Virus record (IMG/VR): IMGVR_UViG_3300028327_000658
DNA from: an uncultured virus (IMG/VR IMGVR_UViG_3300028327_000658)
Lineage: Duplodnaviria; Heunggongvirae; Uroviricota; Caudoviricetes
Direction: 5' to 3' (one strand)
DNA: 20,000 nucleotides
The translations under genes and the position numbers were made by a program. This document shows, piece by piece, positions 1 through 15,175 of the stretch (the first letter of the stretch is position 1; each line of letters starts with the position of its first letter). The notes beneath the pieces were generated by a model that was not told the DNA's origin, ran no database searches, and was given only the letters and a program-made list of their open reading frames with translations.

Positions 1-3000
1 GATCTAACATATCACGAGACGTGCTGTTATAATCTACCGTGCTATCCGAGGGAAGTTGTTGCAAAGGTTTAAATTTCTTAGCTTCATATTCCTGATTTTT
101 TGCAGAAACGATAGTCGCAAGTCTATCCGCATCTTTAATTAATAATTCATTCGCATCCTTACAATCCCCATATATTTCGGTTTCAAGTTCACAATAAACA
201 TCGTTATCTACCATAAGTTTTACGTACAAATCTACAGCGGATTCATGCCCGGCTATATCATTATCTAACGCGAGAATCAACGGCTGTACCGGCTGCCTGT
301 TATGAACCATATCCACGAATCTATCAATATTGCCGACGCTGCCCAAAGCCACCGCTTCGCCGCCGACAGACATTATACTCAGAGCGTCAATTTCGCCTTC
401 AACAACAAATATCGGCTTATCCGACGTATATAACGCATTGCGGTTAAATACCTGAACTGTCCCAAACTTCCGGTAACGATCAGCCGGAGAAGCGTCAGCC
501 GCAACATTTCGGGCAACAAACGAATCATTCCCCGTAGGAACAACCAATGTTTGCCACATCTTGCTGCCCGTCCCATACTTGAAATAAGGGTCATATCCGA
601 CGTTAAACCGACGTAAAACATCTATGTTAAGACTGCGGGTCTGCGGATAATCCGTATCGCCAAGCCGCTCGGCACACTTCTCAAAATACTTAGCCATCCG
701 TGGAGTAGGCTGAATATTAAACCGGATGCCGTTGTTTTTTGTCGGTAGGGTAGGGGAGACATCCGGCTCCGGTGTCGGTTTTTCTGCCATTTGTTTGCCC
801 GAAAGCAAATCTTTGGCCGCATTTTGCGCTAATTCATCAAAAGTCATATCCCGTACCTGTTCTGGCGCCAATTCATGCACCATAGCTTTACGTTCCTTAT
901 CAAAAAGACGCTCCGAAATCCACTGCCATAGGTCATTAAGACACGCTTTCACCCGCTCGCCGAACGTCTGCCACCGCTCGCCGTCGAATATCGCCTCGCC
1001 ATTGTTGCCTATCGCAAACGCCGCCGCTTCCTCCGCTAATTGTACGTCGTTTAAGTCTTTGTACGCCTCATTATTACGTAAACTTCTGTAAACGTCCGAA
1101 TCCTGCGCGGCCTCTACAAATCTATCGTATAACGGCTTATTATCTCGTTTAACCATATCTAACCACAAATGCCCGTATTCGTGGATCGGCGTATTTGCGT
1201 TCATTTTGTTCGGGTCGAGGTAAATTTTGCTGTCCTCGGTGGCGAAACCGTATACCTCGCCCTTCGGCGTGGACATAAGACGTACGTGCTCCGCAATCTC
1301 TATCGCAGCATCGTCGAAGACCACGTAGTTGCAGCTGCCATCGTGACTGCCATTAGACAGATAGCCGGTCGGGTACTGAATGCCGTCGATACCGGCACGG
1401 AGAAGGAATGCGGAAGCAGCTTTTGGAGAGCCAAGAACCATTGATAATTCATGTTTATAAAGCCACTCGCCGTCCCGCATACCACCGGGGAACATCAGTT
1501 CTCCCGTGGATTCATCACGATAAAACAAACGCTCAAGGCTTTCTTTTGCGGCTTGTTTCATGATTTGCTGAAGCTGACTGGCTGTCGGCGGCTCGTCCCA
1601 CCTGATAAAGTTTAGCTCATCCGCTGTCTTATCACCGTGGATTTTGACTTCATAAAGATTATGAGCAGACGGAGGCATTTCAACCTGGAGGGTCTTGTTA
1701 TCTATAAGCGCAAGCCAATCTTCGTTATTCTCGGAAACAATATAATCTCTTGCCTGTTTAATATCCCCGCTATAAAAACGAATAATATTTGCAAGCTCTC
1801 GTTTAAGAGTACCGCTACTATTATCCACCTCTTCCCCGTCAATAAACACTTGAATAGGTAGAGTAGTACGACTCAATGTCTTCGCGTACCCCTCCGCAAT
1901 CCCTCGCAAATCCGTAAAATATAACCCGAACCCATAAACCAGCGTCCCTTCCCCCGTTCCTATGTGGGCCGTCGAGAATCTGTCAAAAGCATGCGGGCTG
2001 CCATGCCAGACGTTCATGTACCGGGCGGCCGGCTCCTCGCCGAACTCCTCCTCCAGCCGCTTCCGCATCGCCTCCGCGTCCGTGATCACGTCCTTAGCCA
2101 GCCCGGTCTTGCCCAGCCGGTCCAGCAGCTGGCCGAACTCTTTGGGCGGGATCGGGGTAGGGGAGTAGTCTCCAGAAAAAAAATTATTTTTTTTCTTGCT
2201 TTTTTCAGGAAAATTTAGTATATTATTATTAGAGTTTGGCTCTGTTGACACTTTCATTTGATCATGAAAGGTGGACATTGTGGGCCTTTGGTCGAAGCGA
2301 ATATCATCGGATACGGTGATCATAACTTCAGGAGTCAGACTCTTTTTTATTGTTTTTTCTTTACTCCAAGTATAAGCAGTCCATACTTCTAAAGCATTAT
2401 TTTTAATTATCGCATCCACCACATGAAGTGTTCCATCCGCATATTGTTTTGATATGACCAAAGTATCATAACCACCTCGTTTAGTTTTACTTCCTTTCCT
2501 GATATAGTCAGGATGTGCCAAAACATCAGGTATAAGCCCAATATTTTCTAGTGTCATAGGGATTTGACCATCGTTTAACTCCTTTGTAATATCAGATCCA
2601 TGCGTATCATATATGTGCTTTAAACCTTTTAACGTAATTATTTGTTTCGAAATAGATTTACCATAAAATGCGTTAACAGCATCTCTCACCTTGTTAGAAA
2701 TCGGCCCTAGTTCTATCTCATTCTTACCATTTATATTCCGATGAGTTTTCTTTATTATTGTATTCCAAATATTAGATAACCAATTTTTGATTACCTCTGG
2801 TACAGTTGCTCTCGCTTCCTCCATAGTTAATAGGTTCTTTGCATCCGTAGACGTTCCATCACGTCGTGCAAACCTAATATTCTGGCGTTCTACTGCCGAA
2901 ACGTCATAATCAGCACTCGGTGCCCACACAAACCCCGCCCCGGCACGTTTAAGAGACTCTAACTTTGATTTAATATATCGATTAGATGAAGCATTCAACC

Positions 3001-4801
3001 CCCCCTCAAACCATAAATGACCCTTCTCACGGGCCGACACGTAAGACACCTCCCCTTTTCCGGTATCTTTAAACCAAACATTATCCAATACACATAATTT
3101 ATGGCCAGAATGTACCCCGTCCCTTGCTACATCCAACGTTTTATCGTACATCTTTATATCGTTAGTCACAAACGCCACGGCTTCACCTCCATACTCCCGC
3201 ATCTTTTGATAAACATTTTGATAATGCAGTTGAGACTCCGTAAGCGGAACCCAGCCCAAAATGTCGTTAGTCATCGACAATACCAACATTGCGGTTTTCT
3301 TTTCGTTATGAATATATGCCGCACCTAGCTTCGCTATCTCTTGCGGACCGTGCGTACTAACACGAGGATGATTCAAATATAAAGAATTTCCACCGTCATA
3401 ACTCATTTCCTCAACATCCAAATTCGGATGTATAAAAGAAAACTTGTCATGGTCTAATATTATATGTCCCATAAATCTCGTCCATAAATTACCTAAATCT
3501 TGAGCTAATACCGATGTCGCGTGTTTATCCGCATCTGACGGCGTAACATCACCTGACGGATGATTATGCATCACGCAAAATCCTTTTGCATTTAACCTAT
3601 TCATTCGGTCACGTATATTATAAACTCCTCGCGCCGGTGTCTCCGCATCATACACCAAACTTATCCCTGTCAAACCGACTGAAACCATGTTATGACCCGC
3701 TATTGCGGTACATTCCTTGTCCGCAAAGTATATATGATGCGTCTGCTCCAAATGCGGATGACGATACACCGAAAACAACGCCGCTAAATCTTCCGGCGTT
3801 TCAACTATCTGGCCCCTCATATCTATACGCTTGCTAAGCCGCCATTCATCGGCTAAACGGGGCGATAACGAATATATTTCACGATTAACTTCTTCATCTA
3901 TCAATTTTACTCGGTCTGCGCCGCCGAATTTAATATCCATTGCCGCAGCGGACAATCCCATATCTTCTAAAGGCCGACGTTGGTAACGGTCAATATGTTC
4001 TAACGTTTCGTCTACGCTATGACTCGCTAAATAAACCTCATTCTCGCGCCGACCCCAATTTACACGTATTCCTCCTAAATTACGCTCTATCTGAAGCAAA
4101 CGGCTGCGGGCATCCGACGCGGAAACATCCAGCCCGCATAATTGAAATGGATTAGAGCGATCCGCTAAAAACTCATCAATATCAGAATGTCCAGGCATTC
4201 TATATACATTTTTCGGAGCATGGAAGTACGTGTCTATCCCGTAAAGCAGCACTCCGTCCTCCACGTCCACAACATCACGGTACAATCCCGTCAAACGCTC
4301 CTTCGCATCCTCTTTATCTTCTTTCATTACTTTTATAAAACCTATATCCGAAAACGGCGGAACGCTGACCAACTTGCTCAAATTCTGAAACATCATCTCG
4401 CTGTTCACATAACGCTCGCCGTCCGTTTTCAACCGCTGTTTTACATCATTCACGTCAAAACGCTGACACAGCGGCAACCGCGTCAACGCCCAGTTCGCCA
4501 GCCGGTTATTATACGCAAGATTCATCGCCATCATACCGGCGCATAACGGACGATGCGGCCCGCCATGCCGATTAACCCAGTCACACAAACCCGTAACCCC
4601 GCCTTGATCATATATTAGTCCCAAATCTTTGAAAAACAGCTTAAAATTCTTATCCGAATAAAATTTCTGAAACTCCTTCCATGCTTTATCGCCCCAACTG
4701 GAGCCAAAACGACGTGATAACAAGAAAAAATGATCAAACTCCGGCATAGACGGTATGTTTTTGCCGCGATTAAATTCATTCAAACCACGTGTAGCGTCCA
4801 T
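1..4801 (-). CDS. Giant polyvalent protein (at least 1600 aa, 3' end beyond the window): DUF4007-like, RadC/JAB, PBECR3-like RNase, ADP-ribosyltransferase, zincin metallopeptidase and Toprim primase domains
   Basis: Not in the ORF track because there is no stop in the window. ATG at 4801 lies 7 nt after AGGAG (4813-4809) and just after the TGA of the upstream gene. Hand translation is open for 1600 codons (MDATRGLNEF...SRDMLD). The frame was checked at HNHPSG (3568), HIYDTHG (2617), HGSP (2005), HEYGH (1183) and EGEID (400). Confidence 0.93.
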   Translation of the reverse strand, partial: MDATRGLNEFNRGKNIPSMPEFDHFFLLSRRFGSSWGDKAWKEFQKFYSDKNFKLFFKDLGLIYDQGGVTGLCDWVNRHGGPHRPLCAGMMAMNLAYNNRLANWALTRLPLCQRFDVNDVKQRLKTDGERYVNSEMMFQNLSKLVSVPPFSDIGFIKVMKEDKEDAKERLTGLYRDVVDVEDGVLLYGIDTYFHAPKNVYRMPGHSDIDEFLADRSNPFQLCGLDVSASDARSRLLQIERNLGGIRVNWGRRENEVYLASHSVDETLEHIDRYQRRPLEDMGLSAAAMDIKFGGADRVKLIDEEVNREIYSLSPRLADEWRLSKRIDMRGQIVETPEDLAALFSVYRHPHLEQTHHIYFADKECTAIAGHNMVSVGLTGISLVYDAETPARGVYNIRDRMNRLNAKGFCVMHNHPSGDVTPSDADKHATSVLAQDLGNLWTRFMGHIILDHDKFSFIHPNLDVEEMSYDGGNSLYLNHPRVSTHGPQEIAKLGAAYIHNEKKTAMLVLSMTNDILGWVPLTESQLHYQNVYQKMREYGGEAVAFVTNDIKMYDKTLDVARDGVHSGHKLCVLDNVWFKDTGKGEVSYVSAREKGHLWFEGGLNASSNRYIKSKLESLKRAGAGFVWAPSADYDVSAVERQNIRFARRDGTSTDAKNLLTMEEARATVPEVIKNWLSNIWNTIIKKTHRNINGKNEIELGPISNKVRDAVNAFYGKSISKQIITLKGLKHIYDTHGSDITKELNDGQIPMTLENIGLIPDVLAHPDYIRKGSKTKRGGYDTLVISKQYADGTLHVVDAIIKNNALEVWTAYTWSKEKTIKKSLTPEVMITVSDDIRFDQRPTMSTFHDQMKVSTEPNSNNNILNFPEKSKKKNNFFSGDYSPTPIPPKEFGQLLDRLGKTGLAKDVITDAEAMRKRLEEEFGEEPAARYMNVWHGSPHAFDRFSTAHIGTGEGTLVYGFGLYFTDLRGIAEGYAKTLSRTTLPIQVFIDGEEVDNSSGTLKRELANIIRFYSGDIKQARDYIVSENNEDWLALIDNKTLQVEMPPSAHNLYEVKIHGDKTADELNFIRWDEPPTASQLQQIMKQAAKESLERLFYRDESTGELMFPGGMRDGEWLYKHELSMVLGSPKAASAFLLRAGIDGIQYPTGYLSNGSHDGSCNYVVFDDAAIEIAEHVRLMSTPKGEVYGFATEDSKIYLDPNKMNANTPIHEYGHLWLDMVKRDNKPLYDRFVEAAQDSDVYRSLRNNEAYKDLNDVQLAEEAAAFAIGNNGEAIFDGERWQTFGERVKACLNDLWQWISERLFDKERKAMVHELAPEQVRDMTFDELAQNAAKDLLSGKQMAEKPTPEPDVSPTLPTKNNGIRFNIQPTPRMAKYFEKCAERLGDTDYPQTRSLNIDVLRRFNVGYDPYFKYGTGSKMWQTLVVPTGNDSFVARNVAADASPADRYRKFGTVQVFNRNALYTSDKPIFVVEGEIDALSIMSVGGEAVALGSVGNIDRFVDMVHNRQPVQPLILALDNDIAGHESAVDLYVKLMVDNDVYCELETEIYGDCKDANELLIKDADRLATIVSAKNQEYEAKKFKPLQQLPSDSTVDYNSTSRDMLD
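120..700 (-). other. DnaG-like Toprim primase domain of the polyvalent protein
   Basis: RSLNIDVLRRFNVGYD...IFVVEGEIDALSI...LILALDNDIAG...KDANELL carries the Toprim E, DxD and KDxN motifs. Confidence 0.88.
800..1285 (-). other. Zincin-like metallopeptidase domain (polyvalent MPTase type)
   Basis: GEVYGFATEDSKIYLDPNKMNANTPIHEYGHLW...LAEEAAAFAIG: HExxH at 1183-1169 plus downstream EE. Confidence 0.82.
1290..2015 (-). other. ADP-ribosyltransferase-like domain (ART-PolyVal type)
   Basis: VWHGSPHAFDRFSTAHIGTGEGTLVYGFGLYFT...NLYEVKI...ASAFLLRAGIDGIQY...NYVVFDD matches the HGS / GLYF / G.DGI / YVVF pattern of phage polyvalent ARTs. Confidence 0.8.
2196..2224 (+). promoter_or_regulatory. Sigma70-type antisense promoter embedded in the polyvalent CDS
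   Basis: TTGCTT (2196-2201), 17 bp, TATATT (2219-2224), preceded by an A/T-tract UP-like element (2176-2194). Hexamers and spacing are identical to the three intergenic promoters at 12692, 12780 and 12869. Confidence 0.8.
2231..2348 (+). ncRNA. Putative ~113-nt structured antisense RNA inside the polyvalent gene
   Basis: Starts 7 nt after the -10 box. AGAGTTTGGCTC (2231-2242) pairs with GAGTCAGACTCT (2332-2343): 12 bp with 2 G-U, followed by a T-run. Internal hairpins are CTTTCAT-ttgatc-ATGAAAG (2251-2270, extendable) and ATCATCG-GATA-CGGTGAT (2303-2320, GNRA loop), with a weaker GGCC-ttt-GGTC between them. Confidence 0.68.
2365..2745 (-). other. PBECR3-like (phage Barnase/EndoU/Colicin/RelE fold) RNase domain
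   Basis: IELGPIS...IITLKGLKHIYDTHGSDITKELNDGQIPMTLENIGLIPDVLAHPDYI...LVISKQYADGTLHVVDAI...LEVWTAY fits the HI..xHG...E..GQ.p...IP.vl..PD signature. Confidence 0.78.
3060..3860 (-). other. RadC-like JAB/MPN domain followed by a probable degenerate second copy
   Basis: ETPEDLAALFSVYRHPHLEQ...VMHNHPSGDVTPSDAD...FMGHIILD has an intact E...HNHPSG.x.PS.xD metal site (3568). The next segment (GPQEIAKLG...LVLSMTNDILGW) echoes the fold start but lacks HxH. Confidence 0.85.
3990..4801 (-). other. N-terminal DUF4007/SspB-like domain (tentative)
   Basis: NFKLFFKDLGLI...T...GMMAMNLAYN...W...PPFSDIG...VLLYGI...NPFQLCGL...IRVNW...VYL...SVDETL resembles, from memory, the DUF4007 region fused to PAPS-reductase in Ssp/BREX-4 loci. 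Confidence 0.55.
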
Positions 4802-4814
4802 TCCATATCTCCTA

Positions 4815-7800
4815 TCAATTAAACGATATATCGTTATTATTTGACACGCGCTGACTCGGTTTCGCCGCTTCATTGCTATAACTTAGTGTCAGTTCCTTCA
4901 TTCCAAGTTCAAGTTCCCGATTCAACGCATACACCTCAACCCGCGCCTTTACCTCCGCTTCCGGTACAGACAGCTTAACAACTCCGGTCATCTTATCCTC
5001 GCCGTCGCAACGATACACTCCATATATAGGGTTCCCCTTACCCGAACCGTCTCCGCTGTTCAAAATCTTAACACCGTAATCATTAACCTCCAAATCTCCC
5101 AAATCCATATTAATTTCGTTTGTGCCGCAGCCTCTACCTATCAAATTTATATTATCTTTGTCCGCAACCCTCGTTCCTCCATGCATACGGCGGTACTCCA
5201 TAGCATATTCCCCGGTACAATTCATGTTCCAGTCGTACCTCGGCGACCGCTCCAAATGATTAGCCGCGCCGTCATAAACCCGTATCGGCGGAACCCCGGA
5301 TTCCACAGCTTTCGACATCGCCGACTTGCAACTTTCGCTTAAACGTACATTATATACCCCCTCAATCGCTTGAATTGCCTCTCCCGCGTTCCGTACCGCC
5401 TCTTGCGAGCTGACAAACCGCTCGTACAATATGCCGCGCATCATCCCCTTGTCATAATCCAATCGGTCACTCCAAACCCGAACCGTCTGATGGTTTTGGC
5501 ATTCTTCCGTCACATATTCGTCCAAAACATCACACGCCGTCTCGAATTTCTTTGCCACGGCGGTATTATGTTTTCCGGCCAACTCCAGCGCATAGCCCTT
5601 TACCTCATTATATAAATCACCTATCCGCTCCGCTTCTGCCATGTATCCAGGAAAACTAAAACCTTTATGTTCCGACCGAATGTCTTTAACTTCTCCTTCG
5701 TGCCCGGCCAACCCGAACTTTCGTTCAAAATCTCTATACTTCTTAAATTCCTTCTCGCAATCGCAAATAACAGGTTTTACAATATGACGGTTTAATCCGG
5801 CATCTTTACACACCAAGCTGACCATTGCATCATCCACTACCGCGCGTTCATACACAATATCCGACAATCGGCCATAAACCGCCCCACGGCCTTTTAACGT
5901 CAATTCCGCGCTATCAGTTTCTTCCGCAAAAGCCAAATAGCCGCGATCCGCCAACGACTCCAGCATCTCTACAGTTTTATCAATGCTCGCGTAACGCAAT
6001 ACCGTACATGTCCCTTTACCTTCCAGCTCTACTAATACCGCTAACTCCATATCTGACAACGGGTTATCTACGTTAACCTCGATATTATCGCTATCGTCAA
6101 CATCGATACTATCCGCATCTACATCACGTTTTTCGGCAGACGTTTCTAATATCTGTCCAACTTTTTTGTTATCCAAAACAAAAACATCTTTGGCCTCCAC
6201 CCCGTTCATCTCTTTCTCAATACTGTCCCCTAAATCATCCTCAAAGCGGCCGTGTTCCTTAAAATACTCAAAACGGGCATAAAAACGTTGTTCAGCCGCT
6301 TGAATCTCTTCCCGCGTCATATCACGCAAACCGTCCCACGGAAATTCATACTCCGCTCCGTTAAACTTTTTGCCTACATCCCCGCCCAACAATTTCAATA
6401 CCTCTCCTAACTTCACCCGTTTCTCCTGCAATTCCGTTTCTTTCGAAAATCCGCCGCTAAACGACTTACAAAAATCAAGCTCTTTCTGATATTCCTGCAC
6501 ACGTTTCTTGAACACATTTAACGTAGTGTCCGTCCGATCATAAACCATATTATGTATTCGCCGACAAAGCCCGACTTCGTCCGTATCGAGAGCCAGCGGG
6601 TCAGAGTGTACTTCGTGCCCCAACCCGTTGCTTCCCACAGATTTAAAATAATATGAACGATAATAGCTCCCGCCGCTGGCGGCGACCGACTCTAACGAGA
6701 TCCGTGCATTGCCGTATGTGCCCAACTCTATGCTGTTGCTTTCCCGCGACATACTGAATTTTTTCAGCGCATCCTTTATTAACGTCCCGGCTTCCTTGCG
6801 GGCTGACTCCGTCCCCGCGACAACCTTGCCGTCCGCGTCCTTTTTTATCGCGAATTCCTTTCCTAATAGCTTAATATGAAAATTATCGCCGCTCAACGTC
6901 TCCTCGGCCGGACGCAACGAAACATCCGAAGTCAATCTATCCAGTACCGTTTGAGCCTTCTTTATATCATCAGGCAAATTACGCATTCTATCCATAACGC
7001 GAACGCCGTTCTCACGGTGGGTCTTAGCCTGTATCTCCAATTTCCGAACGTCGTCTTTCAACATCACGGAATCCCGCAAAAGCGGATTATTTGTCGATAA
7101 CTCCATCAAAGAGTTATAACGATCCTCGCCGTCGCTTATTTCGTCACCCATATTGTTCAAGTCCATCGTCATTATCTCGGAAATAAAATGCTGCTTCGCT
7201 TTCAACCGCTCCAATAATCCGGTCTCAACAGTATCTTGCGCGATAGCGTGAACTATATTAATGAAATTATTTTCATTGCCGCTACGGATTCCACGGCCGT
7301 TACGTTGCGTCAACTCCGCTGGTTTCCACGGCAAATCCATATGTATGATATTATTCATCCGCTTTTGCGCGTTCACCCCCTCGCCCATAACGGGCGTATT
7401 GCCGACCATTATACGTATCTTTCCTCGATTCAGCTCATCAAACCGCGTCTGGCGGTCCTCCGTCTTTTCGTCCCGGATAAGGCATATCGCTTCGGGCGGC
7501 ACACCCAGCCCCGCCAATCGGCTGCGCAGCTCAGCCAAACCGTCAAAAATCACCTCTTTCTTCATATTAGTGTACTCGCCGGTTTCTTCGTCCCACTTAG
7601 ATTTCTCCGTCAGAACTTCTTTTGTCGCGCAAGGTTGATCCCAAAACACCAATGATGTCAAACGCTTCTCCATTGCTTCAGGCTTAAAATACTCCTCGGC
7701 AAGATACTTCGCAACCAAACCGATCTTTGTATTGTCGCCGACAGACAGGTTTTCATTGATCAATCGAGGGTCAACCGCCATCTTACGGCCGTCGCCGATT

Positions 7801-12302: not shown

Positions 12303-12358
12303 AGTTACCCCTTCCTACAAGCGTAATTCATCTAATTTTAACTGCGGATAACCGTAGC

Positions 12359-12391
12359 CGTTGCAAAAACGTTGCAAAAACGTTGCAAAAA
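12359..12391. repeat. Three perfect tandem 11-bp repeats (CGTTGCAAAAA), probable operator
   Basis: Copies at 12359, 12370 and 12381, overlapping the predicted start site of the leftward promoter. Confidence 0.85.
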
Positions 12392-12393
12392 TA

Positions 12394-12422
12394 AATATAC
12401 CATAAATTATACGAAAATGCAA
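12394..12422 (-). promoter_or_regulatory. Leftward sigma70-type promoter for the helicase-methylase / polyvalent operon
   Basis: Minus strand TTGCAT (12422-12417), 17 bp, TATATT (12399-12394) with an extended -10 TG. Confidence 0.75.
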
Positions 12423-12664
12423 ATCTTTTTTGTTTTTTCGGGAACGGGGGCATTCCTGTCCCCGTAACGCCCATAGGGTAGGCATCGCCTGCGGCGATGC
12501 AATCGGGCATTTGATTAATACTCCGAAGCTCAAAACATGAGCGTCAACATAAACACGTTGACGCAAAAAGCCGGGCATCAAAAGAAAACCGTCTGGTTTT
12601 GGCGGCGGGGTTGCGGGGGCGAGTAAAATTATATTATATTGTATATCGGGGAGGGCAGGAACCA

Positions 12665-12925
12665 AAGCAAACAAAATAAATTAAAAAATTGTTGCTTTTT
12701 TAACAAAAATATATTATATTATATATAGTAGGGTTAAGCGCAGAAAAAGCAAATAAAAGCAAAAATAAATAAAAAATTGTTGCTTGTTTAATAAAAATAT
12801 ATTATATTATATGTAGTAGGGTTAAGCGCAGAAAAAGCAAATAAAAGCAAAAATAAATAAAAAAATATTTGCTTTTTTAACAAAAATATATTATATTATA
12901 TATAGAGGGGCAAAGCGAAGAAAAG
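12665..12925 (+). repeat. Three tandem 88-89 bp direct repeats, each containing a rightward sigma70-type promoter
   Basis: TTGCTT-N17-TATATT at 12692/12715, 12780/12803 and 12869/12892. Each has upstream A-tracts and a downstream TAG(T)AGGG...AAGCG segment. Confidence 0.9.
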
Positions 12926-12980
12926 ACGGTAAAAACAATAAAAACACAAAACCGCAGTTTGCGGGGAAAGAAGGGGAGTT

Positions 12981-14909: not shown

Positions 14910-15087
14910 GCGGGGGAAACCCCGCCAAATATAATAAATTAATCTATTTTAGGCGTACAAAATTTTATAGAAAATAATCTTAATTTATCTAATTTGCGTC
15001 AAAAATTATCTTGTTTAAAAATATCTCAAAAAAACAGAAAAAAAAGCAAAAAATCTATAAAAAACGGCGAAAAAAGCAAAAAAACCG

Positions 15088-15116
15088 TTGACATTTTCAC
15101 AGTAATATATTATATT
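15088..15116 (+). promoter_or_regulatory. Sigma70-type promoter
   Basis: TTGACA (15088-15093), 17 bp, TATATT (15111-15116). It shares the AATATATTATATTAT...TAGGGT context with the triple promoters and has phased A-tracts upstream. Confidence 0.85.
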
Positions 15117-15175
15117 ATCAATATAGGGTAACAAAATTACCCAAAACTCATCACAAACGGAAAGGATTTTTGCCA

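Follow-up and report, generated by a model that had tools for sequence, protein, structure and literature searches.

Introduction

RNases of the BECR fold, which include colicins, contact-dependent inhibition (CDI) toxins and RelE-type toxins, are among the best-studied bacterial weapons, and to our knowledge a protein keeps every known BECR-fold RNase in check. PBECR3, a domain of polyvalent proteins, structurally most resembles RNase toxins that each have a dedicated inhibitor. Here we analyzed a stretch of 20,000 nt from an uncultured virus of the class Caudoviricetes (IMG/VR record IMGVR_UViG_3300028327_000658; the whole stretch is hereafter called the window), in which a small structured RNA gene very likely lies on the + strand, opposite the end of a PBECR3 domain that is encoded by the − strand. 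Judged from sequence, this RNA and PBECR3 appear to constitute one self-contained unit (hereafter the cassette), which is either stand-alone or, as in the window, fused in frame into a polyvalent protein.

Antisense antitoxins that overlap the 3′ end of the toxin gene are found in type I toxin-antitoxin pairs such as bsrG/SR4 and txpA/RatA. In another type I pair, from Bacillus subtilis, the 100-nt SR6 overlaps the 3′ end of yonT (PMC5848175). Like the cassette, type I pairs are compact and mobile and have a convergent RNA of about 100 nt with its own promoter over the toxin 3′ end (PMC5848175, PMC6563280), and the RNA described here, being cis-encoded, convergent, separately promoted and overlapping the end of the coding sequence (CDS), agrees with the type I arrangement in layout only. 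In contrast to type I pairs, whose toxins are small hydrophobic peptides, the toxin would here be a BECR-fold RNase domain of about 110-180 aa; the RNA, which stops at the domain boundary, shows conservation of both a multi-helix fold and a sequence core, and the pair can sit in frame inside a giant protein.

Type III systems (ToxIN, CptIN and TenpIN) are comparable in another respect, in that an endoribonuclease is checked by a folded RNA that binds it, as we propose here, and they are likewise present on mobile elements and in defence contexts (PMC8860590, PMC5086642). However, the RNA described here lies downstream of the nuclease on the opposite strand, has its own promoter and accompanies an unrelated toxin family. 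Two or three tandem RNA units were noticed by eye in only a few related loci (L010, L058 and L062), and Tandem Repeats Finder (TRF) detected no tandem array near PBECR3 in the window or in locus L003.

Colicins E5 and D and the CdiA-CT tRNases belong to the nuclease fold class that is predicted for PBECR3 and are delivered toxins whose producers require an inhibitor. The immunity protein of colicin E5 (ImmE5) imitates the anticodon loop of tRNA and thereby inhibits its target (PMC1669751). An RNA decoy would achieve this mimicry directly: the inhibitor proposed here would be RNA itself, not a protein imitating RNA, and an immunity open reading frame (ORF) is absent.

Stretches of about 100 nt with terminal inverted repeats that are read through as extra peptide are also known from Rickettsia palindromic elements and miniature inverted-repeat transposable elements (MITEs). 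The RNA gene resembles such in-frame palindromic elements in its length, its terminal inverted repeats and its translation, but differs from them in not being dispersed, in having a promoter and a T-run, and in that its divergence parallels that of the adjacent domain.

By the definition of Iyer et al. 2017 (PMC5512222), the window contains a conjugative-element-type polyvalent protein locus, and its protein is a textbook case of the polyvalent PBECR proteins with a PBECR3 module. The words "antisense", "noncoding" and "immunity protein" do not appear in that paper, nor does it describe an RNA partner; "antisense" is likewise missing from a 2026 BECR classification. Among the papers listed on PBECR domains, polyvalent proteins and RNA antitoxins we found no published description of the PBECR3-RNA arrangement, and no Rfam family matched, which agrees with an earlier reading of this DNA (the sequence-only reading) that had known of no description. 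We also found nothing in the literature on how PBECR effectors in polyvalent proteins spare their producer. A conserved RNA partner would explain this protection and bring an immunity principle based on RNA to the field of delivered toxins. The stretch would moreover be a clean case of one DNA segment selected at once as promoter, structured RNA and ORF, and, considering that the family offers about 30 natural variants and the cassette is short, functional and structural work should be feasible.

A putative antisense RNA gene at the end of PBECR3

The antisense RNA gene is very likely real, since its features are conserved in coding, non-coding and frame-shifted contexts, its stems covary, and it is linked exclusively to PBECR3. 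The sequence-only reading had placed a promoter (TTGCTT-N17-TATATT with an A/T tract) on the + strand inside the minus-strand CDS, followed by a 113-nt multi-hairpin RNA that begins at 2231 and ends in a U-run, and all of these were recovered (Table 1), with 2231 as the first base of a closing stem that proved to be 13 bp long. It had also regarded the promoter as identical to intergenic ones, and the same hexamer pattern indeed recurs at 12692, 12780 and 12869; together with the copy at 2196 this makes four copies in the window, compared with 0.01 expected (0/200 shuffles reach four). In a repeat alignment, 2167-2236 matches the three intergenic promoter copies plus 15059-15128. The + strand of 2231-2350 folds at −43.9 kcal/mol (z = −4.94; none of 200 shuffles is equal), and the corresponding values for the − strand of the RNA region are −26.2 kcal/mol and −3.11. 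After G+C correction, the + strand RNA segment ranks 14th among 3978 overlapping 115-nt segments and represents the fourth most stable distinct region of that strand. The closing stem comprises 10 Watson-Crick and three G.U pairs on the + strand with no A.C combination, in line with the claim that its deviations are G-U pairs on that strand, and the predicted GNRA loop (GAUA) was found as well.

On the protein side, the RNA stretch had been described as linker following the RNase domain, which holds: the Pfam match of PBECR3 ends with residue 841 at base 2351, and in an AlphaFold2 (AF2) model of a 211-aa block the predicted local distance difference test score (pLDDT) is >90 for residues 1-157 and <50 for residues 161-206, the tail encoded by the RNA gene and its promoter. 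The T6 run is read on the − strand as Lys codons at the end of the domain.

Several other identities of the element were considered. A cloverleaf-like RNA, as the sequence-only reading had suggested, is not supported by ARAGORN, which detected no tRNA or transfer-messenger RNA (tmRNA) gene within the window. The Rfam search that it had proposed matched no family: with the Rfam 15 covariance models nothing reached E <= 1 in the window, and 15 related loci yielded just two sub-threshold matches, both outside the RNA gene. Complementarity of the RNA to other sites of the window is not above chance (one 10-mer vs 4.05 expected). A small ORF within the RNA was rejected, as the ATG-started frame of the window has no counterpart in L003-type RNAs (by eye). 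A single-strand promoter hairpin of conjugative leading regions was ruled out because the hexamers lie outside the stem, and the conserved promoter and T-run speak against an integron attC site, which is an imperfect palindrome bounded by conserved inverse-core and core sites and has no promoter (by-eye comparison with the attC consensus).

Conservation of the RNA gene in related loci

A HMMER scan yielded 211 proteins at E <= 0.001. The "linker" is shared as protein by P0003, the closest tail-bearing relative (compared as protein), and by P0009, whose DNA is locus L002; many stand-alone proteins of 150-190 aa stop before it. The DNA first recovered was that of P0009, of another metagenome contig and of three genomes from Fibrobacterota. 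When 296 Fibrobacterota genomes were searched with a profile, 13 places were obtained in 10 of them, and Pfam PF18812 gave 31 places in 18 genomes (27 over the cut-off; 0 in 14 control genomes), including a second, more distant PBECR3 group. Three of these places were left out (L053 and L081 at contig edges, and G096:C41 with no locus), so that the 31 loci studied comprise the window, the metagenome contigs L001 and L002, and 28 places in 18 Fibrobacterota genomes.

The sequence-only reading had called for a scan past homologous PBECR domains for antisense promoters and stems, and such a scan supports the RNA gene. The automatic detector used for this looked for a −10 box matching at 5/6 positions or more, followed 3-13 nt downstream by the start of a closing stem of 7 bp or longer and, after 60-140 nt, by a T-rich tail. 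This triad is present antisense at the PBECR3 3′ end in 21 of the 31 loci, all 21 having the T-rich tail after the stem, and in sense orientation in none, compared with 30 of 930 shuffles (3.2%). In two of the 21 (L057 and L073) the first call was made at an upstream site, and the domain-abutting RNA was then located at looser thresholds. Looser thresholds add L013, L065 and L071, in an uncontrolled test in which spurious calls also arise, and L016 has a measured 11-bp stem and a weak tail.

The position and sequence of the signals are also similar across loci. In 11 second-group loci, the distance of the RNA 3′ end from the end of the Pfam domain is between −6 and +4 nt. Among the 15 first-set loci, the −10 box is TATATT in 13 and TAAATT in two, and a TTG-type −35 box at approximately 17 nt spacing was recognized by reading rows in 13 of the 15 aligned loci. 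Both hexamers are information peaks, the spacer between them varies, and they are kept in non-coding DNA and in different reading frames. For example, TTGCTT-N17-TATATT and the T-run are present on the antisense strand of L002, together with a GAAA loop and a closing stem that differs in sequence and is perfect over 12 bp, and the protein frame across the promoter differs there from that of the window. In six stand-alone loci (L001, L003, L004, L009, L011 and L012) the stop codon is within the RNA footprint and the promoter is intergenic; the stop is near the promoter in L013 and between the RNA and the −35 box in other loci, and polyvalent frames of 391-2624 aa have no stop across RNA and promoter. 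In the read-through ORFs (the window, L005, L010, L015, L016, L058, L060 and L065), a recurring ..NIxNS.. peptide contains the translated −10 box as "NI" or "NL", and the linker peptides of polyvalent proteins may partly be shadows of the antisense signals.

RNA-like units in tandem, two or three in number and some with their own −10 box, were noticed by eye in L010 (about 2080-2300), L058 (1346-1498), L062 (three units) and L014. The upstream unit of L058 has a promoter sequence identical to that of L002.

Covariation and a conserved core

Alignment of nine first-group RNAs gave 22 consensus pairs, 16 of which have compensatory changes. Paired cells account for 90.2% in this alignment, compared with 76.5% in shuffles and 34-56% in slid controls, and 0/500 shuffles reach the observed value on any of five covariation measures. 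In the second group (four RNAs), 10 of 27 pairs are compensated. A core near CGUUUYGGACGU is present in most of 13 second-group RNAs (alignment consensus AGnCGTTTnGGACGTT), in coding and non-coding DNA alike; a purely cis-antisense RNA would not need such a core, which points to a sequence-specific partner. GNRA loops are found in the window and in L002.

Linkage to PBECR3 and orphan RNA genes

Covariance model R1 gave three strong matches in 151 genomes, all of them PBECR3 loci used in training, plus one 26-bit match. Model R2 gave eight matches in 10 whole genomes, namely four training loci, L054, the upstream unit of L062 and two places without PBECR3, so that six are at PBECR3 loci and two at remnants (L082 and L083). 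At both remnants, tblastn matches are confined to the tail encoded by the RNA gene, with or without the final ~14 residues of the domain, and a −10-like box and the closing stem remain. L002 keeps the RNA and its promoter and has lost the catalytic half of the domain (Pfam positions 58-112 only, 26 bits). RNA without an intact nuclease is thus found in L002, L082 and L083, and none of the 31 loci offers a clear case of a nuclease without RNA.

A dispersed palindromic repeat similar to MITEs, repetitive extragenic palindromic (REP) sequences or Rickettsia palindromic elements (RPEs) was rejected, because R1 and R2 match only PBECR3 loci or their remnants. In L082 (937-1507), the orphan RNA gene adjoins a frameshifted gene that is Abi-like by eye.

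Searches of other collections returned no relatives: blastn of 1900-3000 had no match in phage and plasmid collections; tblastn of the 211-aa module, P0017 and P0023 had none in annotated phage and plasmid collections; and none was detected in a viral contig collection with the protein, the exact RNA stretch, alignment A2, P0013 or P0015. A 9+9-nt stem pattern was found at 30 loci, which is chance-like by a rough estimate, and only one of them scored (23.6 bits).

The putative mobile cassette and the polyvalent protein

The block common to stand-alone loci extends from the CDS start to ~25 nt past the −35 box and comprises only the CDS, the RNA and the RNA promoter, approximately 650 bp in total. 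In the window, the cassette starts at a "..TMEEA.." motif, where stand-alone PBECR3 proteins begin, and its other end lies immediately upstream of the antisense −35 box. The genes adjoining the block vary among loci and include a YhcG nuclease, a GH5 cellulase with CBM30, cas1-cas2, a nucleotidyltransferase and an FGE-sulfatase. The shared block leaves no space for a protein antitoxin or immunity gene, consistent with the sequence-only reading, which had seen no immunity ORF here.

The GC content is 0.65-0.69 at 1951-2175, 0.30-0.37 at 2176-2850 and rises beyond, with flanks of 0.45-0.69. This sharp GC mosaic (1951-2850) lies in frame inside a single ORF and suggests recent module exchange from donors of unlike composition. 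Module shuffling is known in polyvalent proteins, and solo PBECR versions are known as well (PMC5512222).

In L013 (87-2127), a stand-alone PBECR3-RNA cassette is located directly downstream of cas1 and cas2, and other cassettes adjoin a YhcG PDDEXK nuclease or a nucleotidyltransferase, surroundings that are defence-island-like. Direct repeats were observed in L003 (2651-2751, 3634-3859 and 5031-5085) and L004 (1375-1426, 1771-1822, 2868-2919 and 3711-3762). They are ~55-100 nt long with a short GC hairpin inside and flank single-gene units approximately 1-1.4 kb apart, including the PBECR3-RNA cassette, a layout that looks like a cassette array.

The product of the window ORF is 100% identical to P0002, a representative protein of 2015 aa (full protein length). 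Pfam domains of the 2015-aa protein are RadC/JAB, PBECR3, a weak ART-PolyVal match and a C-terminal Toprim, and an HExxH segment is additionally present. The genes nearby encode a 2495-aa SNF2-type helicase protein, DUF932 and DUF5131. An "IRF"-type motif recurs three times at domain borders of the polyvalent protein.

PBECR3 is a predicted BECR-fold RNase, and its PF18812 scores in relatives are 42-50 bits. Asp100 as well as His64 and His69 of the H.Y..HG motif show a conservation of at least 90% among 37 PBECR3 sequences, both histidines being nearly invariant, and a BECR classification on bioRxiv (2026) groups the active-site His of PBECR3 with that of colicin D. In a wide structure search with VIA-align, the best matches of the model were a RelE-like toxin (7vd7, Z 6.3), BrnT (5.9) and colicin D (5.1), with CdiA-CT chains at Z 4.5-5.1; for colicin D, colicin E5 and CdiA-CT chains taken together, Z is 4.4-5.1. 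All structural Z values are <8 (4-6.3 across the RNase toxin neighbours); the resemblance of the predicted fold is modest, but the list of toxins is consistent. Foldseek of the model against PDB gave no match at E <= 0.001.

Table 1. Positions in the window of the putative RNA gene, the surrounding cassette and the polyvalent ORF
Feature	Position	Strand	Remarks
Polyvalent ORF	2..4873	−	Open frame from 4873, runs off window edge
Low-GC cassette	2176..2840	−	Equals an entire stand-alone PBECR3 gene + RNA gene + RNA promoter; in frame
PBECR3 domain (predicted)	2351..2677	−	Residues 733-841 of ORF; Pfam PF18812, 38.8 bits vs cut-off 30
Protein "linker" read from RNA gene and promoter	2174..2343	−	About residues 844-900; predicted disordered
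UP-element-like A/T tract (A8-TTA-T8)	2176..2195	+	Upstream of −35; similar A/T tracts in related loci
−35 box (TTGCTT)	2196..2201	+	17-nt spacer before −10
−10 box (TATATT)	2219..2224	+	Six bases, then RNA body
Putative structured RNA body, 113 nt	2231..2343	+	Fold, covariation, covariance model R1 63.8 bits
RNA closing stem, 13 bp	2231-2243 with 2331-2343	+	Fold
RNA hairpin 1	2244-2276	+	Fold
RNA hairpin 2	2283-2293	+	Fold
RNA hairpin 3	2294-2329	+	GNRA loop GAUA at 2310-2313
T-run T6 (U6)	2344..2349	+	Abuts closing stem; presumed terminator tail

Possible function of the RNA

We favour the reading that the RNA is the antidote of the PBECR3 RNase and acts, most likely, as a folded RNA that binds and blocks the protein, to which we assign a probability of about 0.4. 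An RNA of about 60-130 nt would be transcribed from a sigma-70-type promoter opposite PBECR3, starting 6-8 nt after the −10 box and ending at the T-run, which coincides with the last codons of the nuclease domain. Binding could be type III-like in principle, possibly with the RNA imitating a substrate that cannot be cleaved. Cells producing the protein would be protected, and protein reaching a new cell would arrive without the RNA. In the window, the whole ~650-bp two-part cassette appears to have been spliced in frame into a conjugative-element-type polyvalent protein, so that the RNA gene and its promoter would also be translated, as a disordered linker. An antidote role is suggested by the compact and promiscuous cassette without room for a protein inhibitor, by the existence of orphan RNAs when nucleases without RNA are not clearly seen, by the retention of the RNA even where it is translated as linker, and by the structural relatives of the domain, which are all neutralised toxins. 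The toxin/RNA-antitoxin module of the sequence-only reading is upheld in part, as a conserved and self-contained RNA-PBECR3 unit; the orphan asymmetry fits a toxin with its antidote, and the antidote role of the RNA is what we infer.

A number of points weigh against this reading. There are none of the tandem RNA repeats that, lying upstream of the toxin on its own strand, define the type III architecture; every locus stems from Fibrobacterota or termite-gut DNA; and in six loci (L014, L017, L054, L056, L062 and L068) the features were recognized by eye only, with approximate RNA boundaries in L014, L054, L056, L062 and L068 and weak model matches for L054 and L062. Protein constraint could contribute in the read-through ORFs, where the −10 box encodes "NI" or "NL" and the T-run encodes Lys. 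With regard to the strand, 15 closing stems have 24 G.U against 5 A.C combinations on the antisense strand, an excess that comes from stems delimited on that strand, and a separate 15:0 count of G.U is biased because the detector accepts G.U only. Moreover, composition-corrected z-scores are equal on the two strands (mean −3.19 vs −3.24, Wilcoxon p = 1.0, n = 26), so that folding alone is compatible with a DNA-level or sense-strand role of the inverted repeat. In 25 of 26 family members the antisense strand has the lower raw fold energy, but a choice of strand from fold stability was dropped in view of the equal z-scores. The strand appears to be indicated by the promoter, the correctly placed start and T-run, the GNRA loops and the G.U excess, not by folding energy; of the earlier claim that the structure is strand-specific, the part on G.U pairs stood and the part on stability, once corrected for composition, did not.

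A more specific proposal is that the arrangement represents a new class of toxin immunity, in which a backwards-oriented structured RNA after a BECR-fold RNase inhibits the RNase directly as a substrate-like decoy; we advance it tentatively, as it may well prove wrong. If it were true, RNA and domain would travel as a ~650-bp cassette even within proteins delivered into new hosts by mobile elements, one strand of the DNA would encode a protein linker and the other an antidote RNA, and chromosomal orphan copies would be RNA "immunity genes" against incoming effectors.

Another possible, though in our view doubtful, explanation is that the RNA is a purely cis-antisense regulator similar to type I antitoxins, which would never touch the protein but base-pair with the mRNA of PBECR3 or of the polyvalent protein at its 3′ end, and whose pairing would trigger RNase III-type cleavage or block the completion of translation, keeping toxin synthesis low. 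Complementarity is built into the convergent layout with its 3′ overlap, in several stand-alone genes the stop codon falls within the RNA footprint, 7-40 nt from its edge, and the RNA is driven by a strong promoter of its own and lacks tandem repeats; the layout is the same as in Bacillus type I pairs such as SR6/yonT (PMC5848175). However, the overlap with the domain-coding part is minimal, the RNA ending at the domain end, and neither the conserved primary-sequence core nor the multi-helix fold is needed for pairing in cis. Orphan RNA genes no longer have a cis target, the toxin is not a small hydrophobic peptide, and silencing of the mRNA would also stop the making of a protein that is presumably meant for delivery. 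Protein binding is preferred over pure antisense action because the RNA avoids the domain-coding sequence and keeps a core that cis pairing does not need, because orphan RNAs survive, and because a delivered effector must be made yet kept harmless.

It is unlikely that the RNA is real but serves as a cofactor or guide of the nuclease, or as a hitch-hiking regulator of other functions of the element. Tight linkage and a conserved core would fit any specific RNA-protein partnership, but the occurrence of orphan RNAs with no clear nuclease lacking RNA fits an antidote better than a cofactor, and the complementarity of the RNA to other sites of the window, which does not exceed chance (one 10-mer vs 4.05 expected), argues against a regulator acting in trans.

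Still less probable is a function at the DNA level, either of the inverted repeat as a recombination or cassette-boundary site, or of the promoter by transcriptional interference with the RNA being irrelevant. The element does mark the edge of the mobile cassette and of the GC mosaic, its fold z-scores are equal on both strands, and polyvalent proteins are known for module shuffling (PMC5512222). On the other hand, the −35/−10 spacing, the placement of the start relative to the −10 box and stem, and the immediate T-run are the signature of a transcription unit, loops have conserved sequence and include a GNRA loop, and the different flanking repeat of ~55-100 nt in L003 and L004 is a better boundary candidate. 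The view that there is no functional element, only conservation of a linker peptide or chance in A/T-rich DNA, is close to refuted, for although the window, L002 and P0003 have a translated tail that can be aligned as protein, with the −10 box read as "NI" in read-through ORFs, the DNA features are kept where they are non-coding or in another frame, the pairs covary, the detector finds 21 of 31 loci against 3.2% in shuffles, and the linker peptide is predicted to be disordered.

Other observations in the window and in termite-gut DNA

All seven runs listed for this DNA are termite-gut DNA, and no RNA run is among them. From the reads of four of these runs we obtained no joints, only identical contigs of low depth, 31-mers of low complexity at the A/T tract and one contig that shares the promoter. 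This contig, 157 nt long and from another termite-gut sample, matches the promoter at 2188-2228 with eight differences and then continues into unrelated sequence, and this promoter type appears to drive other units in that termite-gut community.

The main intergenic region of the window (12303-12980) contains an 11-bp repeat in three copies (12359-12391) and, at about 12396-12580, the most stable fold of the window, which is present on both strands. The region also contains a tandem array of 2.8 copies of an 88-bp unit (12673-12924), each unit having a TTGCTT-N17-TATATT promoter directed toward the DUF932 operon. This region is possibly a control or origin region of the element.

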